Shown one piece after another: positions 2,481-46,648 of a DNA stretch of 48,709 bases. The stretch comes from Candidatus Binatia bacterium (GTDB lineage Bacteria; Desulfobacterota; Binatia; Bin18). The notes beneath the pieces are model-generated. The model had not been told where the DNA came from. It made no database searches and saw only the letters and a program-made list of their open reading frames with translations. The stretch lies in assembly GCA_025057295.1 (NCBI GenBank), contig JANWXO010000001.1, forward strand, positions 1-48,709. Direction: 5' to 3'. A program made the position numbers and the translations under genes. Position 1 is the first letter of the stretch. Every line of letters starts with the position of its first letter.

Positions 2481-3299
2481 ATGGCGAAAGGGGAGACAGA
2501 TATGGCGGACTTGCTCGTTGCTGTGAAGAATAAGGTCGGCATTTTCACCCTGAATCGTCCTGACAAGCTCAATGCTCTGACCCCGGCGATGGGGACCGCC
2601 GCGGTTGCTGCGCTGCGCGAGATGGCTGCGGACCCGAACGTCGGTGCGATTGTGCTCACCGGAGCGGGCAGGGGCTTCTGCGCTGGCGGCGATGTCTCTG
2701 CCATGCAGCGCGGTGAGGAGAGCGGGCCGTCGGAGACAACGCTGGAGGAGCGGATCGATGCCTTGCGCCAGCGCCACGAGTGGCCCTGGCTGCTGTATAC
2801 CATACCCAAGGTGACTATCGCGGTGGTAAACGGACCGGTAGCAGGTGCAGGGTTGGGGTTGGCACTCTGCTGCGATCTGCGTCTGGCTTCTGATCAGGCC
2901 ACCTTCGGCACTGCCTACGCGCGCGTCGGCTATGGCGGCGATTTCGGCGTCACGTGGCAGCTCACCCGCCTGGTCGGGCCGGCGAAAGCGAAAGAGCTCT
3001 TCTTTCTGCCGGATATGATAACGGCTGCCGAGGCCTTGCGCATCGGCTTGGTCAACCGGGTGATCCCGCACGAGCGATTGTGGGAAGAAGCGATGGCGCT
3101 TGCCGAACGCATCGCGGCTGGTCCGCTGGTCAGCTACCGTTACATGAAGGCGAATGTGAACATGGCGACGACGGTCGATTTCCGGACCATGCTCGATCGC
3201 GAAGCCGAGACCCATGTGCGGTGTGGGCAGACTGCCGATCACCAAGAAGGGGTGCGGGCTTTCTTGGAAAAGCGCCCACCGCGGTTCCGTGGGCGATAA
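2481..3299 (+). CDS. Enoyl-CoA hydratase/isomerase (crotonase) family protein
   Basis: GIFTLNRPDKLNAL and LTGAGRGFCAGGDV oxyanion-hole motifs. Start trimmed from the track ORF (2379) to ATG 2481. The exact start is uncertain (ATG 2502 is also possible). Confidence 0.85.
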   Translation: MAKGETDMADLLVAVKNKVGIFTLNRPDKLNALTPAMGTAAVAALREMAADPNVGAIVLTGAGRGFCAGGDVSAMQRGEESGPSETTLEERIDALRQRHEWPWLLYTIPKVTIAVVNGPVAGAGLGLALCCDLRLASDQATFGTAYARVGYGGDFGVTWQLTRLVGPAKAKELFFLPDMITAAEALRIGLVNRVIPHERLWEEAMALAERIAAGPLVSYRYMKANVNMATTVDFRTMLDREAETHVRCGQTADHQEGVRAFLEKRPPRFRGR

Positions 3300-34346: not shown

Positions 34347-35356
34347 GGGGCAGGAGCGTGCCGAGAGTACGCTGGGACCACGAGATCGAGCCGCTTCGCT
34401 TCGCGCAGGTGGGGGGGAAGAGGTTTGAGGTCCCAAATGATGCCCAGCCAGGCGAGGACGACGAGGAGATAGTAGGTCAGGTCGATCTCCCACCAGTAAA
34501 ACCCCTGACGAGCGGCGGCTGGATAGTGATGGTGGTTGTTATGCCACCCTTCGCCGAAGGTGATGAGCGCCAAGAACAGGTTGTTGCGGCTCTGGTCGTT
34601 GGTCGCGTAGCGTTGGCGCCCGAACTGATGGGCGAGGGAATTCACGGTGTAGGTACAGTGGTAGAGCACGACGGTGGAGAGGAAAAAGCCCCACACCAGG
34701 AGTTGCAGTCCATTGGTCTCCAGTGCCGGAGCCCAGGCTTCCAGGCCGGCGCCCAATCCGTAAAGGAACCCTGCGAGGGAGAGGGCAACGAGGATGTCGA
34801 AACGATCGAGAAAACAAAGCTCGGGAAATTTGGCCAGGTCCGGCACGGCATGCACCTTCGTGCCGAACGCGGCGGGAGTCAGGAACCAGCCGACATGGCT
34901 CCACCAGAACCCCTGGTGATGGGGGGAGTGGACATCGAGGGCTTGGTCAGAATGTGCGTGGTGGTGGCGGTGATGAGCAGCCCACCACAGAGGACCACGC
35001 TGAACCGCACTGGCCCCCAGTACGGCAAAAACGAACTGCCACCAGCGGGACGTTTTAAACGCGCGGTGGGAGAAGTAGCGGTGGTAGAACGCGGTAATGG
35101 CAAACATGCGAACCGCGTACAACAGCGCCGCCGTAACGACCGCGGTCCAACTCCACCCCACCCAAAAGACCAGACCGCACAGCAGGTGCATGGCGAGAAA
35201 TGGCACGACGCGGAGCCAGTCCACCTGCTGCGCGGACGGGGGTTGCCGCTCCTCGCTCCCCGCCCAAGCGTCAAACCAACGGAGAACGGAGGGAACAAGA
35301 GAGGACAGCCTGGCTGTCAGTGAATGCCTGCGTCTCGACGGGTGGAAAGATGCCAT
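34343..35356 (-). CDS. Membrane acyl-CoA/acyl-lipid desaturase (delta-9 type, three histidine boxes)
   Basis: His boxes HRYFSH, HHRHHHAHSD and WHNNHHHYP, with TM segments between them. 337 aa. Confidence 0.9.
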   Translation of the reverse strand: MASFHPSRRRHSLTARLSSLVPSVLRWFDAWAGSEERQPPSAQQVDWLRVVPFLAMHLLCGLVFWVGWSWTAVVTAALLYAVRMFAITAFYHRYFSHRAFKTSRWWQFVFAVLGASAVQRGPLWWAAHHRHHHAHSDQALDVHSPHHQGFWWSHVGWFLTPAAFGTKVHAVPDLAKFPELCFLDRFDILVALSLAGFLYGLGAGLEAWAPALETNGLQLLVWGFFLSTVVLYHCTYTVNSLAHQFGRQRYATNDQSRNNLFLALITFGEGWHNNHHHYPAAARQGFYWWEIDLTYYLLVVLAWLGIIWDLKPLPPHLREAKRLDLVVPAYSRHAPAP

Positions 35357-35527
35357 ACATCAACCTCTCTCCTGCTTAACCAAAAAAGCGTGGTTCGTCG
35401 AACCCCCCTCTGAAGACGGGTTGCTGCACTCCCTTCGTATGCCCTACGGCTGAGATGCGCCTTTAGATTTTTGTCTGCCCATCGTCTAAGAGGAACGATA
35501 CCACCGACAGGGAGAACAGCGGTGAGC

Positions 35528-36601
35528 ATGCGCGTCGCACTGGAATTGATGGAGAGAGGTCTGGTCCCCGATCCCCTGATCCGCTGGGGGATTCGCCGTT
35601 TGCTGGCGCGGCGGTTACGCCAACAGCAGGCGGCAGACGCAGGGGAAACGGCGCCTGGGGAAGGGGACGGCGATGGCCCCCGCAGCGCCTTGCAGCAGTT
35701 GCTCGTCCAGCTCCGCCAGAGTCCTATCGCGCTGTCTCCCGAGAAGGCGAACGAGCAACACTACGAGTTACCGCCGGCTTTTTTCCAATGCGTCTTGGGC
35801 AAGCGGCTCAAGTACAGCAGTTGTTACTGGCCTGCTGGCGTCACCACGCTCGACGCGGCTGAAGAGGCCATGCTGGAGCTGACCTGCCAACGGGCGCAGG
35901 TGGAGGACGGCATGGAGGTGTTGGAGTTGGGCTGTGGCTGGGGGGCGCTCGCGCTGTGGCTGGCCGAGCACTACCCCCACAGCCGCATCGTTGCGGTGTC
36001 CAATGCGCACGCGCAGGGAGAGTTTATCAGACGCGCATGCGCCCATCGGCAGCTGACCAACCTGGAAGTTGTCACGGCAGACATGAACGAGTTTCACAGC
36101 CCCCGCCAGGTCGATCGGGTTCTCTCGATCGAGATGTTCGAGCACATGCGGAACTACGAGGCATTGTTGACACGCATCGCCTCCTGGCTCAAGCCGCGGG
36201 GGAAACTCTTCGTGCATCTCTTTTGCCATCGTGCGTACGCCTATCCCTTTGAGAGCGAGGGGGAGGATAACTGGCTGGGACGCTATTTTTTCACTGGCGG
36301 CCTGATGCCGTCGGACGACTTGTTGCTCTATTTTCAGCGCGATCTGGTGGTCCAGGAGCACTGGCGCGTGAACGGCTTGCATTACGCGCGCACGGCAGAG
36401 GCGTGGCTGGCGAACCTCGACGCGAGACGTCACCGGGTCCTGCCGCTTCTGGCGGAGGTCTACGGTCCGACGCAGGCGGAACGGTGGTTGCGGCGGTGGC
36501 GCATCTTTTTCCTCGCCTGTGCCGAACTGTTCGCCTACCGTCGCGGGCAGGAGTGGTGGGTCTCTCACTACCTGTTCCAGCGTCGGGACGGAGAGCGCTG
36601 A
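35528..36601 (+). CDS. Cyclopropane-fatty-acyl-phospholipid synthase family SAM-dependent methyltransferase (short form, 357 aa)
   Basis: [28 protein letters not shown], the SAM motif [16 protein letters not shown], and [14 protein letters not shown]. Start trimmed to ATG 35528 (GTG 35522 is also possible). Confidence 0.85.
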
Positions 36602-36731
36602 GTTAGCTGATCGGGCTGCAGGTTACTTCCCCGTGCGGTAGAGCCTTCTCACCACTGCCAGGCGCTTCTCTCGGGACGGCCAGAAGACCAGTGCTCCCCG
36701 GGCACGCGGGGGACGAGCGGCCCCTATTTTC

Positions 36732-36786
36732 TGTGCAAAATATGTTCAATATATTGACAATAAATGTTCATAATGTATGCTCGAGC
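36732..36786 (+). promoter_or_regulatory. AT-rich promoter/operator: 11-bp-phased direct repeats spanning a TTGACA -35 box and a TATGCT -10 candidate (CarH-type operator candidate)
   Basis: Hexamers TGTGCA (36732), TGTTCA (36743), TTGACA (36754), TGTTCA (36765) and TATGCT (36776) start exactly 11 bp apart. The -35/-10 spacing is 16 bp. The RBS GGAGAAAGGAG and GTG 36811 follow. Confidence 0.5.
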
Positions 36787-36810
36787 GAGCAACGGAGAAA
36801 GGAGCCCCCT

Positions 36811-38391
36811 GTGGACTCTGCCCCCCGAGAGGCGCTGGCCGCTGATGCCTTCGATGTCGCTCCGGTGGACGATACCGAGACGCCCCTCCCCCCATGGGCC
36901 GAGGAAGCGTTGACCCCGGAGCAGTTCTTCTCGCTGGCGACCGAGAGTCGACGACACTGGACGGGCGAACGGCGGTTGCTCCTCGCTGTCTTACAGAACG
37001 CCGTCGATGAATTGCTCCGCTATCGCGACGCGCGGACGACGCGGGGCAGGCGGCTCTTCCGCGAAACGCGGGACTGGTTTTGGTCGCGCGAACACACCTA
37101 TCTCTGCGCCTTTGAAACTATCTGTGCCTATCTCCACCTCGATGCCGACTACGTCCGTCAGGGGCTGGAGCGGCTGCTCGACTCGCGGGCTCCGTCTGCG
37201 TTGCCCGCTGCGGCTCGACCGGAGCGTCCGCTCTCCCCTCCCCCCTCTCTCAGCCCTCAGCCTGCTCCCCAGCGAGAGCAAACGCAGGATCATAGATCGC
37301 GCCAATCAAGGAATACGTACTCACAACCTTCTGCTCCGCAGCGAGAGCAAACGCAGGATCGGCAGAAAGAACGGCGTCAGAATCTGAGTCGTACCGGGGT
37401 TGTCTGCACGCGCGCGGTGGCTCATGTAGAAAGGAAGGGGAATACTGTCGTGGGACAACGAGGGGGGCAGGTGGGGGGGAAACTGTCGATCGGCGCTTTG
37501 TCGCGGGCGACCGGTATTCCGGTCGAGACCTTGCGCACCTGGGAACGACGCTACGGGTTTCCGACGCCCGAACGCAAACCCTCTGGTCATCGCGTCTATT
37601 CCCTTTCCAGTGTGCCCCGCCTGCGGCGGATTGCCGAGGCGCTCGCCCAGGGCCATCGCGCCGGTGAGGCGGTGACCGCCTCGGAGGCGGATTTGGAAGC
37701 ACTCCTGGCAATACCGCCTGCGGTTGCAACTTCTGCACCCACTGCGCTGCCCCGGAGGGATACAGAGGAGGTCGCCGACCTGTTCTCGCTCGTCGAAGCA
37801 TTCGACGCGCCTCGCTTGACCCGTGTGTTGGCTGATGAGTGGCGGCGCCTCGGCCCGCTCGAGTGTCTCTGCTCTCGTATCGTTCCCCTCGTGCGTGCGG
37901 TGGGAGAGGCGTGGGAGACAGCGCGACTGGAGATTCGGCACGAGCATTTTCTCTCCGAGCGCCTGAGCGACTTCCTGCGTGCCCGCCGGCTCGCATTCGA
38001 ACGGCGCGCGCATGGGCCGCTCGTCGTATGCGTGACTTTGCCAGGCGAGGCCCACAGCCTGGGGTTACAGATGGTGGCGCTCTTGCTCGCTCAGGCGGGG
38101 TGTCGGGTGCTCTATCTGGGCACCGAGGTCCCGGTGGGACAGATTGCCGGGGTCGCCAGAGATTTTCGCGCCCGTGCGGTTGCGGTCAGTATTTCCTCTG
38201 CCAACCAGGGAGGGGCGATGGTGGTGCAGGTCGAGCGGTTACGCGCACTCTTGCCGCGACGTGTCACCCTCTTGCTCGGGGGGGATGGCGCACCGGCACC
38301 ACGACCAGGGATGAAAGTCATACAGGATTTGCCTACACTTGCAGCGTGGGGGCGACAGCTCGTCGCCGCAACCAGCCAGGAGGAAACATGA
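36811..38391 (+). CDS. CarH/LitR-type MerR-family regulator with an AdoB12-binding light-sensor domain, read as a 526-aa protein with an uncharacterised ~210-aa N-terminal extension (alternative canonical-size start at GTG 37450)
   Basis: MerR HTH LSIGALSRATGIPVETLRTWERRYGFPTPERKPSGHRVYS. Wx9EH motif W-ETARLEIRH-EH at 37912..37947. ExHxxG motif EAHSLG at 38047..38064 inside a Rossmann-like B12 domain (VVCVTLPGEAHSLGLQMVALLLAQAGCRVLYLG). No in-frame stop between 36811 and 38391. The internal GTG 37450 has RBS AAGGAAGGGG 9 nt upstream. Confidence 0.8.
   Translation: MDSAPREALAADAFDVAPVDDTETPLPPWAEEALTPEQFFSLATESRRHWTGERRLLLAVLQNAVDELLRYRDARTTRGRRLFRETRDWFWSREHTYLCAFETICAYLHLDADYVRQGLERLLDSRAPSALPAAARPERPLSPPPSLSPQPAPQREQTQDHRSRQSRNTYSQPSAPQREQTQDRQKERRQNLSRTGVVCTRAVAHVERKGNTVVGQRGGQVGGKLSIGALSRATGIPVETLRTWERRYGFPTPERKPSGHRVYSLSSVPRLRRIAEALAQGHRAGEAVTASEADLEALLAIPPAVATSAPTALPRRDTEEVADLFSLVEAFDAPRLTRVLADEWRRLGPLECLCSRIVPLVRAVGEAWETARLEIRHEHFLSERLSDFLRARRLAFERRAHGPLVVCVTLPGEAHSLGLQMVALLLAQAGCRVLYLGTEVPVGQIAGVARDFRARAVAVSISSANQGGAMVVQVERLRALLPRRVTLLLGGDGAPAPRPGMKVIQDLPTLAAWGRQLVAATSQEET
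37262..37360 (+). repeat. Two copies of a 30-bp direct repeat (29/30 identical), 69 bp start-to-start, inside the regulator linker
   Basis: 37262..37291 ctgctccCcagcgagagcaaacgcaggatc and 37331..37360 ctgctccGcagcgagagcaaacgcaggatc. In frame, each encodes APQREQTQD. Confidence 0.85.
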
Positions 38392-38870
38392 AACGTCAGC
38401 GCTGGTATCTGTTGTTGTGCTGTGTGTTGTTCGGTTGTGCTCCTCCTCCTCAGACGCCGCAGGAGCAACTCGCTGCGCGCCATATTCCCTTTACGCCTGC
38501 CGCGTTCCTGAGAAGCGCGGAGACCGGGGATCTCATCGCGGTGAACCTGTTTCTTGCAGCCGGCATGGATCCCAACGTGCGGGATCGCTCCGGTGGCACC
38601 CCGCTGCGCTACGCCGCCGCCAAAGGACATCTCGACGTCGTTCGCGTCTTGCTCGACAAGGGGGCCGACGTCAACGCGCAGGACATCGATGGCTTTACTC
38701 CGCTGCGGTACGCTACCTACTATGGGCACACGGAAGTCGTCCGTGTCCTGCTCGACAAAGGGGCCGATCCCAACATCACGGATAAGTGGGGGTGGACGCC
38801 GGTGATGATCGCTCCCCACGGCAACCTCGATATCGTGCAGTTATTGCAAACCGCTGGCGCGCGGCGGTGA
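38388..38870 (+). CDS. Ankyrin-repeat lipoprotein
   Basis: Lipobox LFGC. Three to four ANK repeats (GGTPLRYAAAKGHLDVVRVLLDKGADVNAQD / GFTPLRYATYYGHTEVVRVLLDKGADPNITD). ATG 38388 overlaps the regulator stop (ATGA). Confidence 0.85.
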   Translation: MKRQRWYLLLCCVLFGCAPPPQTPQEQLAARHIPFTPAAFLRSAETGDLIAVNLFLAAGMDPNVRDRSGGTPLRYAAAKGHLDVVRVLLDKGADVNAQDIDGFTPLRYATYYGHTEVVRVLLDKGADPNITDKWGWTPVMIAPHGNLDIVQLLQTAGARR

Positions 38871-38975
38871 GCAGCGACGGCGATCCCTCTCGGAGCCGTA
38901 CTCGGTGGGGTGCTCTCCTGCGCGAGACAGGCCTCTCGAGGCGAGCCGCACCGCTCACTGCGCTAACCTCCTTGC

Positions 38976-40001
38976 TTACGGGAGCCGCTCGATGACCGCG
39001 TCGGCGAACGCCTCGGTACTCAAGTCTCCGCCGAGGTCGCGGGTTCTCTTGCCCTCTTGCAATGCGCGATTATAGGCTGCCTTGATGCGTTCGGCCGTCG
39101 CCCGACAGGCGGCGTCCTCGCGCGTATCGGCCAGATGGTTGAGCATCATGACGGCGGACATGAGCAGAGCGAGGGGGTTGGCGATGCCTTTGCCTGCCAG
39201 ATCAGGTGCAGACCCGTGCACCGCCTCGAAGACCGCCTGCTGATCCCCGAAGTTCGCACCGGGGACCACGCCGAGGCCGCCGACAAGACCGGCACAGAGA
39301 TCGCTCACGACATCCCCGTAGAGATTTTCCAATAACAGCACGTCGAACTGGGTTGGGTCCTGCACCAGTCTCATGCAGCCGGTGTCGATGATCATTTCCT
39401 GGTACTCGATGTTGGGATACTCGTGTTGGTGGATCTGCCTGGCGCAGCGCAGGAACAATCCGTCGGTCATCTTCATGATATTGGCCTTGTGGAAGACGGT
39501 GATCTTCCGCCTTTGCCGCCGGGTGGCGAAACGAAACGCCCAACGGGCGATGCGCAGACAGGCGCTTTTCGTCGCTACCTTCATGCTCATCACCACATCA
39601 TCGGTGACTTGATTCTCGACCCCGCTATACAGCCCTTCGGTGTTCTCGCGGACGATAATCAGGTCGACGTCGCTGAAGCGGCTGGGGACCCCTTCGAGAG
39701 TGCGCACGGGCCGAACCGCGGCATACAGATTGAGCCGCTTGCGTAGCTGCACGTTGACGGAGGTAAACCCTTCGCCGACAGGGGTGGTACACGGACCTTT
39801 CAACGCTACCTGATACCGTTCGATCGCTTCCAGCGTTTGCGGCGGCAGGACCTCGTCTCCGGCTGCTAAGGCCGCCAGTCCGGCTTGCTGCTCGATCCAC
39901 TCGACCGGCGCGTGCGCAGCCGCAAGGACGCGTCGGACCGCAGCGGTGACCTCGGGGCCGATCCCGTCGCCTGGAATGAGGACGATTTTATGCGTTGTCA
40001 T
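38976..40001 (-). CDS. NAD-dependent isocitrate dehydrogenase-type (isocitrate/isopropylmalate dehydrogenase family) protein
   Basis: KIVLIPGDGIGPEV, LKGPCTTPVGEGFTSVNVQLRKRLNLYAAVRP, IVRENTEGLYSG, NLYGDVVSDLCAGLVGGLG. Start trimmed to ATG 40001. 341 aa. Confidence 0.85.
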   Translation of the reverse strand: MTTHKIVLIPGDGIGPEVTAAVRRVLAAAHAPVEWIEQQAGLAALAAGDEVLPPQTLEAIERYQVALKGPCTTPVGEGFTSVNVQLRKRLNLYAAVRPVRTLEGVPSRFSDVDLIIVRENTEGLYSGVENQVTDDVVMSMKVATKSACLRIARWAFRFATRRQRRKITVFHKANIMKMTDGLFLRCARQIHQHEYPNIEYQEMIIDTGCMRLVQDPTQFDVLLLENLYGDVVSDLCAGLVGGLGVVPGANFGDQQAVFEAVHGSAPDLAGKGIANPLALLMSAVMMLNHLADTREDAACRATAERIKAAYNRALQEGKRTRDLGGDLSTEAFADAVIERLP

Positions 40002-40136: not shown

Positions 40137-40931
40137 CTAGCGACCCCGACGAACGCGCGGGAACCAGGGCAAAAAGGCGTTGGTCGTGTCGATGTATTCG
40201 CGGTATTCTGGCCGGCGCTCTGTAATGGTCTGTTCCAACAGGGCCACGCCTGACACTTTCAATAACAGTGTGGTCATGAGCAGCGGACTGACAATAGTCC
40301 ATGCTCCGCCGGGGATGGAGAGGGCCAAGAAGAAGTATCCCCACCAGACCATGGCGTCGCCGAAGTAGTTCGGATGGCGGGTGTACGCCCACAATCCCCT
40401 GCACATGACCCGGCCACGATTGGCTGGGTCGGCCTGAAAACGTGCGAGCTGCCAGTCACCTACGCTCTCGAAGAAAAAGCCGATCCCCCAGCAGAGGAGG
40501 CCGATCCCGTCTGTCCACGTCCAGGCGCGTGGACCGACACTCATCTGCACGACAAAGAGGGGGGTAGCGATCAGCCAGATGAGCACCCCTTGTAACAGGA
40601 AGATGGTAAAGAGGCTCATCCACCAGAAACGCTCCCCGCGGTATGCCCGCATGGCCTGGTAACGTCGGTCTTCCCCTTGTCCCCAGTTGCGCCACAGCAG
40701 GTATGCCGCCAGTCGCACGCCCCAGAGCGTGACCAGGGTCAGGGACAAGAGATGACGGGGAGTGGTCTGCGGGCCCAGTGCGCGGTACAACCAGGCCAGG
40801 CCGACGAACCCGAGGCCCCAGAAGATGTCCACGATGCTGGCATCCCGTTTCAGCACGCTGATCAGCCATAGAACGCTCATGGCTCCCAAGATGACTGCCA
40901 AACCTACCCCGAGAGCGCCGATCATGTTCAT
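40137..40931 (-). CDS. DUF1295 family membrane protein (steroid 5-alpha-reductase / ICMT-like fold)
   Basis: RDASIVDIFWGLGF...WRNWGQGEDRRY...GLWAYTRHPNYFGDAMVWWG...LLLKVSGVALLE is typical of DUF1295. Start trimmed to ATG 40931. 264 aa. Confidence 0.8.
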   Translation of the reverse strand: MNMIGALGVGLAVILGAMSVLWLISVLKRDASIVDIFWGLGFVGLAWLYRALGPQTTPRHLLSLTLVTLWGVRLAAYLLWRNWGQGEDRRYQAMRAYRGERFWWMSLFTIFLLQGVLIWLIATPLFVVQMSVGPRAWTWTDGIGLLCWGIGFFFESVGDWQLARFQADPANRGRVMCRGLWAYTRHPNYFGDAMVWWGYFFLALSIPGGAWTIVSPLLMTTLLLKVSGVALLEQTITERRPEYREYIDTTNAFLPWFPRVRRGR

Positions 40932-41069
40932 TGCCCGCACACAAGCATAGCGGTGCTGTCGTGTCAATGTGCGCGAGAACAGCAGCGACGCGACGTGAGC
41001 CACCCTAGTAGCGGAGCAAGACAGGCGTGATAAGTATGCTCTTCCTGCGCGCGGGCAGGAGCAAGAGTA

Positions 41070-42464
41070 GTGAGCGGCATGAAGACGGAACGGTTTGTCT
41101 ATCGCACCCATATCCCTGCGCCCGCGCCCGAAGTCTTTGCATGGCATGTGCGTCCTGGTGCGTTTGAACGCTTAGCTCCCCCGTGGGCGCCGGTGGAGGT
41201 CGTCGAGCGCACCGGTGGGATCGAGCACGGCGCACGGGTCGTGTTACGGATCTCCCTCGGTCCGGTGTCGCGTCTTTGGGTTGCCGAACACCGCGATGTC
41301 GAGGCGGGACGTCAGTTCCGCGACGTACAACTCCAGGGACCGTTCGCGTATTGGGAGCACACCCACCGCGTCGAGCCCGACGGGCCGACTGCATGTTATC
41401 TGGAGGACGAGATTACCTATGCGCTCCCCTGTGGGATGGTGGGCCGTCTGATCGGCACAACCTTCGTGCACCGCCAACTCCAGCGGCTCTTTGCCTATCG
41501 ACACCAGGTGATCGCACACGATATCGTACAACACCGCACGCGTAGCGCGGAGGGTGCGATGCGGATCGTCGTGACAGGAGCGAGTGGGTTGATCGGCTCG
41601 GCCCTGGTGCCTTTTCTCACCACCGGGGGACACCAGGTGACACGCCTGGTGCGCTCGCAGCCCAGACCGGGTGCGGCGGAGGTGCAGTGGGATCCCCTGG
41701 CGGGCAGGCTGGAGGCCACCGCACTCGAAGGGGTCGATGCGGTCGTACACCTGGCGGGGGAGAATGTCGCGGCAGGCCGCTGGACGGCGGCACGCAAAGC
41801 TGCCATCCGTGACAGCCGCGTGCGCGGGACACAGGTGCTCTGTGACGCGCTGGCACGACTGTCGCGGCCACCGCGGGTGGTAGTCAGTGCCAGCGCCATC
41901 GGCTACTATGGGGACCGCGGTGACGAGCTCCTGCGCGAGGACAGCGCGCCGGGCGCAGGCTTTTTGGCTGAGGTGTGCCGTGCCTGGGAGGCAGCAACCC
42001 AACCCGCGGTACAGAAGGGCATTCGTGTCGTGCTCCTCCGCTTTGGTGTGGTGTTGAGTCCGGCAGGGGGAGCGTTAGCGAAAATGCTGCTCCCGTTCAA
42101 AATCGGCCTCGGCGGAGTGGTCGGCAGCGGAAAGCAGTACATGAGTTGGATTGGGATCGATGATGCCGTCGGGGCGATTCACCATGTCTTACACACCGAA
42201 GCGCTCCAGGGTCCGGTGAATGTCGTTGCGCCACATCCGGTGACCAACGCCGAATTTACCGCTACGTTGGCACGTGTGTTGCGGCGGCCCGCGCTCGTGC
42301 CGCTGCCGGCCGTGGCTGCTCGCCTGGTTTTTGGTGAGATGGCCGATGCCCTGCTGCTGGCGAGTGCGCGCGTCGAGCCCACACGGCTCCTCGCTACTGC
42401 CTACTCCTTCCGTCACGCGACCCTCGAAGATGCCCTGCGCCATGTGTTGGGGATGCCGTCCTAG
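41070..42464 (+). CDS. Fusion protein: SRPBCC (START/polyketide-cyclase-like) domain plus TIGR01777/SDR39U1-type NAD(P)-binding epimerase family domain
   Basis: The N-terminal ~150 aa (FVYRTHIPAPAPEVFAWHVRPGAFERLAPPW...GPFAYWEHTHR) are SRPBCC-like. Then IVVTGASGLIGSALVPFL...HLAGENVAAGRWT...YGDRGDE...LRFGVVL (YfcH-like with a DUF1731-type C-terminus). AGGAG RBS 8 nt before GTG 41070. Confidence 0.75.
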   Translation: MSGMKTERFVYRTHIPAPAPEVFAWHVRPGAFERLAPPWAPVEVVERTGGIEHGARVVLRISLGPVSRLWVAEHRDVEAGRQFRDVQLQGPFAYWEHTHRVEPDGPTACYLEDEITYALPCGMVGRLIGTTFVHRQLQRLFAYRHQVIAHDIVQHRTRSAEGAMRIVVTGASGLIGSALVPFLTTGGHQVTRLVRSQPRPGAAEVQWDPLAGRLEATALEGVDAVVHLAGENVAAGRWTAARKAAIRDSRVRGTQVLCDALARLSRPPRVVVSASAIGYYGDRGDELLREDSAPGAGFLAEVCRAWEAATQPAVQKGIRVVLLRFGVVLSPAGGALAKMLLPFKIGLGGVVGSGKQYMSWIGIDDAVGAIHHVLHTEALQGPVNVVAPHPVTNAEFTATLARVLRRPALVPLPAVAARLVFGEMADALLLASARVEPTRLLATAYSFRHATLEDALRHVLGMPS

Positions 42465-44471: not shown

Positions 44472-45926
44472 TTACGATGGCTCATAGGCCGCACGGAGAC
44501 GGTCGAGCGCGGTAAAGACAGCCCGGCGCAGCTCGCAGGGTCGGAACAGACTCACCCCTCGTTTGATCCCTTCGTTGAGCAATTGAGTGAGCTGGGCGAC
44601 GGTGTAGAACTGTTCGTACGCCTCCCGGGTGCGGGCGAGCGGGATGATGGTGTTGTTCGTCAGAAGCGGGTCGGCGTCGGCAGGAAAGTACCCATCGGCA
44701 ACGGCACGCGCGTAATCGGGAGTGCCGGGAATAGGGGAGAAGGAGGAGAGGCGGATCTGGATGCCTAAACTGTTGGCGTAGAGAATCGTTTCGATCACTT
44801 CTGTGAGCGGCTGGTGCGGGAGTCCCATGATGATGTACGTTTCTATCTCCCGCGCCTGGTAGCCGGCCTTGGTCAGGTTGTGGACCGCACGGGTCATCTC
44901 TCCGGGCGTGATCTTGTTGTGGATATCGCGCAGTCGCTCTTTGGCGACGGATTCTAAGCTCAAACGGATCGTTTTGAAGTTGCACCGGTACATCAATTCG
45001 GCCAGTTCCTCGTCGATGTAGCGCGCGTGCAAGCCGTTCGGCGTGTGAAAACGGAGGGGGCGCTTGCTGGCGAGCAGAGCTCGCAGGATGGGCTTGATCC
45101 GGAGGGTGGGTTGCATGAGCAGGGCGTCGTCGTAAAAAGCGACATCTCGGACGCGCAGCCGGCGCGTTTGCGAGAGGATTTCCGCCACCACACTCTCCGG
45201 CTGTCGCTGGGTAAAGGCGCTATCGATCGTGTAGGTGGCGCAGAAAGTACAGCGGAAGGGGCAGCCGCGTGAGGTCATGACGATCAGGTAGTCGTTCTTG
45301 CGCAGCAGATCGAAGGCTGGATAGGGAAAGTCGTCGAGGCGAGCGGGAAAATCGTCCAACAGGTCTGGCCTGTTGCAGAGTTGCGCCAGCAGTGCGGCCA
45401 CTTTGTATTCCCCGGGTCCGGTGATGAGATAGTCGGGTTTGACCACCTGGCGGGCATGGTCTGGCAGGAGCGAGGCGTAAATACCGCCTAGAATGATGGG
45501 GACTCCTGGGAAGACCGCCCGGCAGATTTCTACTACCCGTTGTGGTCCCATGTACCAGTAGGTCATGAAAGAGGTGACGAGGATGGCGTCTGGGCGGGGA
45601 CGACGTTGGAGTTCGGCGGAGAAGACGTCTTCCGGGAGGCCGTAGCGGGCGAAGTGGCGCGGGATGAAGTTCACACACGCGGGCGTGGGCACGATCTCCC
45701 GATAAAAAGGACCGATCCCGTAGCGGCGCAGTTTGGGGGCAGTCCGCTGTTGGCGACGCAGCACCTCTGGATGCCACTTGTCGAGACAGTCCAGGACCTC
45801 CACGGCAAAGCCGCGCGCGCGCAGAAAGGAGGCGAGGTAGAGCAGGCCGAGCGGTTTACTCCAGTGATCATAAGCTGCGAAATCGTAGATCCAGGGGTTG
45901 ATACAGAGAACTGTGGGTGTGCTCAT
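44472..45926 (-). CDS. B12-binding-domain radical SAM protein
   Basis: N-terminal Rossmann-like B12 domain (LCINPWIYDFAAYDHWSKPLGLLYLASFLRARGFAV). Radical SAM cluster motif CPFRCTFC (CxxxCxxC). Start trimmed to ATG 45926, which overlaps the upstream stop (ATGA). 484 aa. Confidence 0.85.
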   Translation of the reverse strand: MSTPTVLCINPWIYDFAAYDHWSKPLGLLYLASFLRARGFAVEVLDCLDKWHPEVLRRQQRTAPKLRRYGIGPFYREIVPTPACVNFIPRHFARYGLPEDVFSAELQRRPRPDAILVTSFMTYWYMGPQRVVEICRAVFPGVPIILGGIYASLLPDHARQVVKPDYLITGPGEYKVAALLAQLCNRPDLLDDFPARLDDFPYPAFDLLRKNDYLIVMTSRGCPFRCTFCATYTIDSAFTQRQPESVVAEILSQTRRLRVRDVAFYDDALLMQPTLRIKPILRALLASKRPLRFHTPNGLHARYIDEELAELMYRCNFKTIRLSLESVAKERLRDIHNKITPGEMTRAVHNLTKAGYQAREIETYIIMGLPHQPLTEVIETILYANSLGIQIRLSSFSPIPGTPDYARAVADGYFPADADPLLTNNTIIPLARTREAYEQFYTVAQLTQLLNEGIKRGVSLFRPCELRRAVFTALDRLRAAYEPS

Positions 45927-46648
45927 CGTTCCTCTGCTGCAGTGGGAGCTTTGGCCCACTCCACCGTGCCCTGACGAATCAGCTCCGGCCACACCGCTTC
46001 GGGAGGTGTGTCGAAGATGAGGGCGGCCGTAGCCGGAAGGATATGCCAGTCGCCGCGGGTGACTTCCTGATCGAGTTGCCCCGGTGCCCACCCGGCGTAT
46101 CCGATGTAGGCACGGAATCGCTCTCCCGGGGTTGTCTCGGCGGCCAGCTGCTGCAAGAGCGCACGGCTCCCACTGGCATAGACGTCGCCAAAAATCTTGT
46201 GTGCACCCTCGTGGTGATGGGGCGATTGGACGAGGAGCAGCAGCTGGGTCCGCCCGACCGGACCACCGATGTACACCCGCTCGGAGCGCCGTTGCAGCGC
46301 TTTGCTGTCGGGGAACAGCTCGGACAGGGCAACAGTCGTCGGACGGTTGATAATCACCCCCATGGCACCGTCTGCCGTATAGTCGATCAGGAGGACGACG
46401 GTCTCGGCAAAATTGGGGTCGAGCAGATTGCGATCCGCGACCAGCAATTTCCCTTTTGCCAGCTCGCTGGTCCGCTGGGAAATGGGCTGCTGAGGAAGTT
46501 GAGGCTGAGACGGAAACCTCGGGGTCCACTCTGTGAATCCCGCCGCCTGCCCGGCAAGAAGAAGAGCGAACAGGAGATAGAGGGGGATCGTCCTCCGCTG
46601 TCGTCGTGTCTGAGGATGTGATCCACGATCGTCGGACGAGATCGCCAT
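45923..46648 (-). CDS. YqgE/AlgH (UPF0301) family protein with an N-terminal signal/anchor-like extension
   Basis: LLVADRNLLDPNFAETVVLLIDYTADGAMGVIINRP...YIGGPV...YAGWAPGQLDQEVTRGDW are canonical YqgE/AlgH blocks, preceded by RRQRRTIPLYLLFALLLAGQAAG. Confidence 0.8.
   Translation of the reverse strand: MAISSDDRGSHPQTRRQRRTIPLYLLFALLLAGQAAGFTEWTPRFPSQPQLPQQPISQRTSELAKGKLLVADRNLLDPNFAETVVLLIDYTADGAMGVIINRPTTVALSELFPDSKALQRRSERVYIGGPVGRTQLLLLVQSPHHHEGAHKIFGDVYASGSRALLQQLAAETTPGERFRAYIGYAGWAPGQLDQEVTRGDWHILPATAALIFDTPPEAVWPELIRQGTVEWAKAPTAAEER

Follow-up and report, generated by a model that had tools for sequence, protein, structure and literature searches.

What controls the operon that encodes a vitamin B12-binding regulator, carH, in the 48,709-nt stretch of the Candidatus Binatia contig JANWXO010000001.1, and is the regulator itself the answer? 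The stretch (the 48.7-kb window, to which all coordinates refer) contains one AT-rich patch ahead of this operon in which short hexamers recur at intervals of 11 bp. We propose that positions 36732-36781 are probably a strong sigma70-type promoter combined with a superimposed CarH/LitR-type operator made of tandem 11-bp units, which would confer repression in the dark and induction in the light. The elements of the patch and of the sequence just after it are listed below.

36732-36742, plus strand: R1, TGTGCAAAATA, the most upstream 11-bp unit, with the hexamer TGTGCA at 36732.
36743-36753, plus strand: R2, TGTTCAATATA, the best-conserved unit outside the promoter elements (TnTTCA), with the hexamer TGTTCA at 36743.
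36754-36764, plus strand: R3, TTGACAATAAA, whose positions 36754-36759 are a perfect -35 hexamer TTGACA (promoter scan).
36765-36775, plus strand: R4, TGTTCATAATG, a clade-specific unit within the spacer between -35 and -10, with the hexamer TGTTCA at 36765.
36776-36781, plus strand: -10 hexamer TATGCT, 16 bp after the -35 (promoter scan).
36797-36804, plus strand: ribosome-binding site GAAAGGAG, invariant in the window and in the related loci L001 and L005, and also present in L089, L091 and L094.

The five hexamers that a preliminary description of this DNA had pointed out can be read directly from the sequence, and they start exactly 11 bp apart from 36732 to 36776. The self-match fraction over 36726-36786 is highest at lags 11 (0.52) and 22 (0.51), with most other lags between 0.15 and 0.44, and when these 61 bases were shuffled the lag-11 value was reached in only 0.055% of cases (0.6% when any lag from 5 to 22 was allowed). 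Two further claims of that description were borne out, namely that this is the only strongly AT-rich patch and that it holds a perfect -35 box with TATGCT at 16 bp. The GC content is 0.20 in the best 50-nt interval (36725-36774), compared with 0.38 in the next lowest and 0.62 over the 48.7 kb, and the promoter scan returned TTGACA-16-TATGCT, with 10 of 12 matches, as the sole sigma70-like site in 35200-39200. The GTG at 36811 keeps its position in relatives, as ATG. Riboswitch and leader-structure explanations were dropped, as a search of 35000-39500 against Rfam gave no match and shuffled sequences fold at least as well as the leader does.

As set out in two articles on CarH operators (PMC9304148, PMC8156234), CarH tetramers bound to adenosylcobalamin (AdoCbl) occupy tandem 11-bp direct repeats placed over the -35 or the -10, three in Thermus and four in Bacillus, pseudo-repeats are tolerated, and myxobacteria use mixed arrays. 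The repeat consensus is given as nAnnTnnACAn, which is the one in the preliminary description, and also as nnnnTnnACAn, and one of them states a search rule of at least three 11-bp N4-T-N3-C units of which at least one carries T-N2-RCR (PMC9304148). Four tandem 11-bp units stand in the window, where the array agrees with this rule on the sense strand in all four, and three are conserved across the 21 sites aligned below. The array also overlaps the promoter that it would regulate, with the -35 inside R3, R4 making up the spacer and the -10 directly after it. Two other designs known for related regulators were not seen in the patch. No pair of hexamers lies 18 bp apart start to start, as do the inverted T(G/A)TACA pairs with N12 of class II LitR sites, and the over-long spacer of 19-20 bp that encloses the dyad of MerR-type activators is replaced by one of 16 bp in the window and of 16-17 bp in its relatives. 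A perfect -35 followed by a 16-17-bp spacer argues for repression and against MerR-type activation.

We compared the patch with 80 fetched metagenomic loci whose CarH is 56-65% identical to that of the window, together with closer relatives (L-numbers denote these comparison loci). An invariant core, CAAAATAT[G/A]TTCAATATATTGACAA, is present in the window, L001 and L005, where position 2 is the only variable base of R2 (G or A), the flanks diverge and the sequence upstream of the core cannot be aligned. The intermediate relatives L089 and L091 keep TATTCAATATA TTGACAATAAC nnTTCr. A module of three units recurs in about 20 independent metagenomic loci whose CarH is 56-86% identical to the window's, and its consensus is nnnTCAAnAnC for R1, TnTTCAnAAnn for R2 and TTGACA(AAA) for R3, followed by TAnnnT after 16-17 bp. 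The 11-bp phasing upstream of orthologues, which the preliminary description had suggested checking, is conserved in close relatives, in intermediate relatives and in those with 56-65% identical CarH. L094, a locus found through u166 (the first gene of the operon) and not through carH, has CATTCAATATC TGTTCAATATA TTGACAAAAAA ahead of u166-x-carH. The -10 of relatives is TATACT or TATGGT at the same spacing; in more distant sites it becomes TAnnnT, with a spacing of 17 bp.

Twenty-one sites from independent loci were aligned. CA occupies positions 5-6 of R1 in 20 of them, and the full sense-strand pattern T-N3-CA is found at 12 R1, 19 R2 and 20 R3 units. R3 reads TTGACA at 19 sites, with TTGACC in L046 and TCGACA in L066 as exceptions, and 20 fit T-N3-CA/TnnACA; most relatives have TAT where the window has TGT. 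R4 (nnTTCr or nnCTCA) has been retained solely by the clade that joins u166, carH and an ankyrin gene (the window, L001, L005, L089 and L091) and is not conserved in other loci. These alignments favour an array that is read on the sense strand and has three units common to the family and a fourth restricted to the clade; the -35 is its sole canonical TnnACA unit. The "four to five" repeats counted earlier have to be reduced to this number, the fifth being the -10 hexamer.

The genes that follow the module differ among loci. It lies upstream of u166 in L026 and in L011, whose operon is u166-folE-x-carH; between divergent u166 and carH genes, with the -35 boxes back to back, in L039, L044, L046, L074, L078, L084 and L088; and directly upstream of carH in L009. 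Genes adjoining carH can also carry it, an SRPBCC gene in L055 and fasciclin genes in L060, L065 and L076. No photolyase or CFA (cyclopropane fatty acid) synthase gene was found under the module in these data. At least nine loci (L035, L055, L060, L065, L066, L076, L080, L081 and L087) have the module near carH with no u166 within the fetched 2-7 kb.

A matrix was built from 12 distant sites, leaving out the window and its close relatives. It scored 28.3 bits on 36732-36764, against a maximum of 6.4 in 20 block-shuffles, a figure whose independent part is considered below, and gave 70 hits of at least 9 bits in the 373 kb of loci (0-3 in shuffles). The earlier statement that the other promoters of the island carry no second copy of the array held in both matrix and pattern scans of the window, in which the next best score was 6.8 bits and the patterns matched only this locus. 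Likewise, no module was found at the divergent promoters 35357-35470 and 40926-41075 of the surrounding gene island.

Different conserved sequences were noticed about 100-200 bp upstream of carH in two other groups of loci, TTGAACAG...TAGACT in L012-L033 (class B) and GGCGAGGTTTTGACGAG...TAGAAT in L034-L079 (class C). The two classes track residue x of the TWExRYGF segment in the recognition helix, which is A and S, respectively, as against R or Q for the module. These class-specific sequences are probably a clade effect, and they could also mark a specificity determinant. Covariation of residue x with the upstream motif was not used as evidence for the binder: the classes follow the clades, and S, N, H or A can stand at x in loci that do have the module.

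The genes under the promoter needed to be redrawn, and those of the resulting operon are as follows.

36811-37387, plus strand: u166, a conserved hypothetical gene, first of the operon, with its start at GTG 36811 and its ancestral stop TGA at 37385-37387.
37253-37328, plus strand: insertion of about 76 nt, specific to the window, within the tail of u166, from a three-way DNA alignment with L001 and L005.
37450-38391, plus strand: carH, photoreceptor gene for a MerR helix-turn-helix and B12-binding protein of 313 aa, with its own ribosome-binding site GAAAGGAAGGGG and a GTG start.
38388-38870, plus strand: ankyrin-repeat lipoprotein gene, last of the operon, with Pfam Ank matches and a start that overlaps the carH stop.

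The open reading frame from 36811 encodes 526 aa, ends at 38391 and is named MerR regulator at NCBI. The 119 other homologues among the matches listed are each about 300-385 aa long and cover only its C-terminal 56-61%, and syntenic contigs with CarH 86%, 78%, 70% and 68% identical have three separate genes in this region, encoding u166 (158-166 aa, no Pfam domain), the MerR-B12 protein (313-316 aa) and an ankyrin protein (about 160 aa), with the start of the last overlapping the regulator stop there too. Residues 1-130 of the window protein align with u166 at 64-77% identity. The insertion, which is extra relative to L001 and L005, lies in the proline-rich tail of u166 and brings in an exact direct repeat of 22 nt (37270-37291 and 37339-37360). 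The resulting frameshift leaves the ancestral stop at 37385-37387 in the +1 frame, so translation would continue from u166 into carH; GTG 37450 aligns with the ATG of carH in L001 and L005. Judged by these alignments, GTG 36811 is the start of u166 and not of the photoreceptor, and the predicted operon is u166-carH-ankyrin. The preliminary description had therefore placed the ribosome-binding site and GTG 36811 correctly and assigned them to the wrong gene, as the B12 photoreceptor starts at 37450. The fusion of u166 and carH is seen only in this assembly and could reflect a recent duplication with frameshift or an error in the metagenome-assembled genome; the deposited 526-aa "MerR regulator", as a fusion artefact or a recent frameshift, should not be taken for a natural domain architecture. 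A conserved non-coding block between u166 and carH (37396-37431, GGGGTTGTCTGCACG...CCATGTA), common to L001 and L005, was also noticed and could be an internal promoter or a translational element.

The u166 family comprises about 128 proteins annotated as hypothetical (in relatives, L001 5436-5936, L005 5432-5932 and L094 5001-5441). The protein gave no Pfam or NCBIfam match, and its AlphaFold2 model has a confident helical core at residues of about 50-125 and no significant match to Protein Data Bank folds. Linkage of u166 to carH takes three arrangements, in which u166 is upstream on the same strand, 2 kb upstream with folE between, or divergent. The distant homologues in L008 and L092 stand without carH and without the module, and a scan of GTDB genomes for u166 led to a single distant locus, which has no carH and no module. 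The ankyrin gene is found after carH only in the clade whose CarH is at least 68% identical, and its product has a lipoprotein-type signal with the lipobox MKRQRWYLLLCCVLFGC. This signal suggests that the product is probably exported and is not a cytoplasmic partner of CarH.

The product of 37450-38391 is a CarH-like protein. Its winged-helix domain of the MerR type (Pfam MerR_1 2.1e-11, MerR 3.5e-10) aligns with the DNA-binding domain of Thermus thermophilus CarH (TtCarH), with a recognition segment near-identical over 24 residues, and a Pfam B12-binding domain is present. A pattern search identified the Wx9EH motif, WETARLEIRHEH, and its W, E and H do not vary among 12 homologues. The strict pattern D/ExHx2G/P-x41-SxT/V-x22-27-GG is absent; read by eye, the lower-ligand motif is E-A-H-S-L-G, x41, S-I-S, x27, GG, which has the canonical spacing and Ser in place of Thr/Val, as in all close homologues (SVS/SIS). 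GxxW, EH, GxxH and GxxxP form the signature of light-responsive B12 domains (PMC11796333), and the complete set occurs in the translation as GEAW, EH, GEAH and GTEVP. The best solved relatives, matched over the full length, are T. thermophilus LitR/CarH (3WHP, 5C8D/E/F; E of about 6e-26). By its NCBIfam score, given below, the protein is a relative within the CarH family and not an equivalog of the curated set.

A second MerR-B12 paralogue, 33% identical, was observed in L005 and L091 between a desaturase and a CFA-like methyltransferase, without a counterpart in the window. The paralogue of L005 has an AT-rich array of its own at 3120-3200, in which TGAATA, TGACAA and TGAATC lie 10 bp apart over a TTGACA -35, and L091 has a similar AT-rich stretch with TTGACA at 900-1000; the window interval 35357-35470 is without the paralogue array.

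The anatomy and phasing of the patch, the conservation of the module beside carH and beside gene types reported to be light-induced, and the signature motifs of CarH in the regulator together point to CarH as the likely binder, and suggest repression under the control of AdoCbl and light. Several observations weigh against this interpretation. Read on the sense strand, only the -35 unit R3 matches TnnACA; R1 and R2 have T or G instead of the A of this experimentally defined core. The preliminary description had read TnnACA from the bottom strand, which holds for R1, R2 and R4 of the window; across the 21 sites the antisense pattern occurs in only 2 (R1), 6 (R2) and 0 (R3), and we replaced it with the sense-strand T-N3-CA because it is not conserved. 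The best family of the regulator, the NCBIfam CarH equivalog NF052513 (E 4.4e-35), has a cut-off of 400 bits, of which the match reaches 121. Part of the training set of the matrix was found with a regular expression taken from R2 and R3 of the window, leaving only R1 and the unconstrained positions as independent, and all comparison loci but one were ascertained through carH, which partly builds in the co-occurrence of module and carH. Whenever carH comes directly after the module, either u166 is a neighbour too or the contig stops, and L010, L024 and L032, whose carH is of the R type, have no module upstream of carH. What is retained of the preliminary description is a candidate CarH-type 11-bp array over the -35, supported by the CarH-like regulator, the conserved phasing and the uniqueness of the site, with its gene start, strand and number of repeats corrected.

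A different regulator might occupy the module, most obviously the co-transcribed u166 by autoregulation, with CarH acting elsewhere or via u166. The gene lies directly under the module in the clade of the window, in L011, L026 and L094 and in all the divergent loci, and wherever the module precedes carH the linkage to u166 is as tight as that to carH. The last two helices of u166, LCAFETICAYLHLDADYVRQGL, could be read as a helix-turn-helix, and its weak, non-significant fold hits include small helix-turn-helix proteins (C.BclI, XRE). On the other hand, no fold or family match of u166 reached significance and no DNA-binding signature was found in it, the module stands beside carH in the at least nine loci with no u166 within reach of the fetched sequence, and it is missing at the distant u166 homologues of L008 and L092. 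The 11-bp tandem layout and T(G/A)TnCA are known hallmarks of CarH/LitR sites, which we also count against u166 as the binder, and we regard this explanation as unlikely.

CarH might instead bind as a MerR-like dimer, with the outer hexamers incidental, and the sequence offers a possible target in an imperfect inverted repeat, TATGTTCAATA/TATTGACAATA (36741-36762). A repeat search found it as an 11+11-nt repeat, 82% complementary and centred between R2 and R3, and CAATATATTG forms a perfect palindrome. The two back-to-back -35 boxes of the divergent loci make the outer TGTCAA...TTGACA palindromic there. CarA and some Cystobacter CarH proteins do act as dimers. The inner palindrome is nevertheless lost in other loci, for instance in TGTTCAAAAGATTGACA and TATTCAGACCCTTGACA, R1, which lies 11 bp further upstream and belongs to no palindrome, is kept at nearly all sites, and the quantity that is conserved is the 11-bp start-to-start spacing, making a dimer on an inverted repeat improbable.

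It could also be argued that the patch is nothing other than a strong promoter, in which the AT-rich sequence from about -57 to -36 resembles an UP element and the phasing reflects a preference for A-tracts or one helical face. Its position immediately upstream of a perfect -35 is exactly that of UP elements, and promoter elements are conserved in their own right. An UP element would not explain why phased bases other than A and T are conserved amid varying neighbours (the C of TCA in R1 and R2, and the final C of R1 in most loci), nor the existence of GC-richer versions of R1-R2 such as CCTTCAAAATC TATTCAGACCC in L065. The module is, moreover, limited to promoters of carH, u166 and their neighbours (SRPBCC and fasciclin genes) and was found at no other promoter in the 48.7 kb, and we consider the promoter-only explanation quite improbable. 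Chance phasing in an AT-rich intergenic stretch is effectively refuted by the local shuffles (p of about 5e-4), by conservation in about 20 independent loci and by the 28 bits of the leave-out matrix (shuffle maximum 6.4), even though the units are short and degenerate and two-unit patterns occur in the window about as often as expected by chance (1.75 expected, 2 found).

If CarH is indeed the binder, a simple mechanism can be proposed. The promoter would drive the three genes u166, carH and the ankyrin-repeat lipoprotein gene, and in the dark AdoCbl-bound oligomers of CarH from the same operon would sit across the repeats on one face of the DNA, covering the -35 and the spacer and keeping RNA polymerase off. 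Light would photolyse the Co-C bond, the oligomer would disassemble and the operon would be transcribed, resulting in negative autoregulation combined with light induction. Whether u166 takes part is more speculative. As a helical protein of orphan fold that is encoded under the module and tied to carH in three arrangements, it might, quite tentatively, be an unrecognised component of B12-dependent light signalling. It could, for example, be a light-induced antirepressor or partner of CarH, similar in function to CarS, or an effector that relays the signal to the island of CFA-synthase and desaturase genes, which is without the module.

Binding by CarH would extend the tandem 11-bp design over the -35 to uncultured lineages like Binatia and Methylomirabilota. 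The photoreceptor of this lineage would then control a small regulatory operon and not carotenoid genes, and u166, from a family with no assigned function, would be the first gene switched on by light. The family-specific unit TnTTCAA also provides a matrix for predicting light regulons from metagenomes, and the regulons predicted so far include carH, u166, folE, SRPBCC genes and fasciclin genes.

The operon is flanked by genes for CFA-synthase-type methyltransferases, DUF1365, flavin adenine dinucleotide-dependent amine oxidases, a fatty-acid desaturase and DUF1295, and by SRPBCC-epimerase-DUF1731, DUF4149 and DUF2878-chalcone-isomerase-like genes. Regulons induced by light or singlet oxygen typically contain such a set of genes. 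In Pseudomonas, the LitR regulon includes photolyase, furan-fatty-acid synthase and folE (PMC9758184). Upstream of the CFA-like methyltransferase, TTTAGATT-N13-CGTCTAA (35462-35489) is kept in L001 (4092-4117). This motif, TTTAGATT...CGTCTAA, does not recur elsewhere in the window, and the rest of the island thus appears to be under different control. The intergenic region between the divergent DUF1295 and SRPBCC-epimerase genes (40926-41075) is highly conserved in L001 (9472-9615) and contains CGCACA-N26-TGTGCG and GATAAGTATGCTCT, without a CarH-type module. A gene for a B12-binding radical SAM protein (44472-46529, minus strand) marks the edge of the island and has the same position in L001 and L003.

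Among known systems, the operator of T. thermophilus CarH (LitR) at PcarH (5C8E) is one of the closest. It likewise has three tandem 11-bp repeats, one of which contains the -35, and the repressor gene is under the same promoter; the proteins share the domain order, Wx9EH, ExHxxG and a very similar recognition helix and wing. The Thermus unit is nAnnTnnACAn, whereas in the window only the -35 unit is a sense-strand TnnACA and R1 and R2 follow T-n-T-T/G-C-A. The window also has a fourth unit in the spacer, and its operon, unlike that of Thermus, opens with u166, a gene with no assigned function, ends with an ankyrin lipoprotein gene and is not linked to carotenoid genes. The R1-R4 layout of the window clade matches the Bacillus megaterium operators, which comprise four 11-bp repeats, or three and a pseudo-repeat, over the -35 or -10; organism and regulon differ.

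Class II LitR sites of Pseudomonas (PplR1/PmlR2), T(G/A)TACA-N12-TGTA(C/T)A, resemble the window hexamer T(G/A)TnCA in having the same G/A wobble (PMC9758184). They also overlap a sigma70 -35, and their repressor acts on genes reported to be light-induced, including folE (PMC9758184). In contrast to the tandem hexamers of the window, 11 bp apart, theirs are inverted and 18 bp apart start to start, and class II LitR proteins have no B12 Rossmann module and work with a LOV partner.

The CarH/CarA operators at the myxobacterial Pcrt mix true and pseudo-repeats at 11-bp phasing, and TTGACA on the sense strand serves as one of the repeats (Perez-Castano et al. 2022, PMC9304148). The window array satisfies the rule of at least three N4-T-N3-C units from that work (PMC9304148). 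Pcrt differs in having five units over about 55 bp and in controlling carotenoid operons (PMC9304148). Myxobacteria have the antirepressor CarS, for which u166 is only a speculative analogue. What would be new in the Binatia locus is the lineage, the repeat unit in which T or G replaces the A of ACA, targets other than carotenoid genes and the possible partner u166; the architecture itself is that of known CarH operators.

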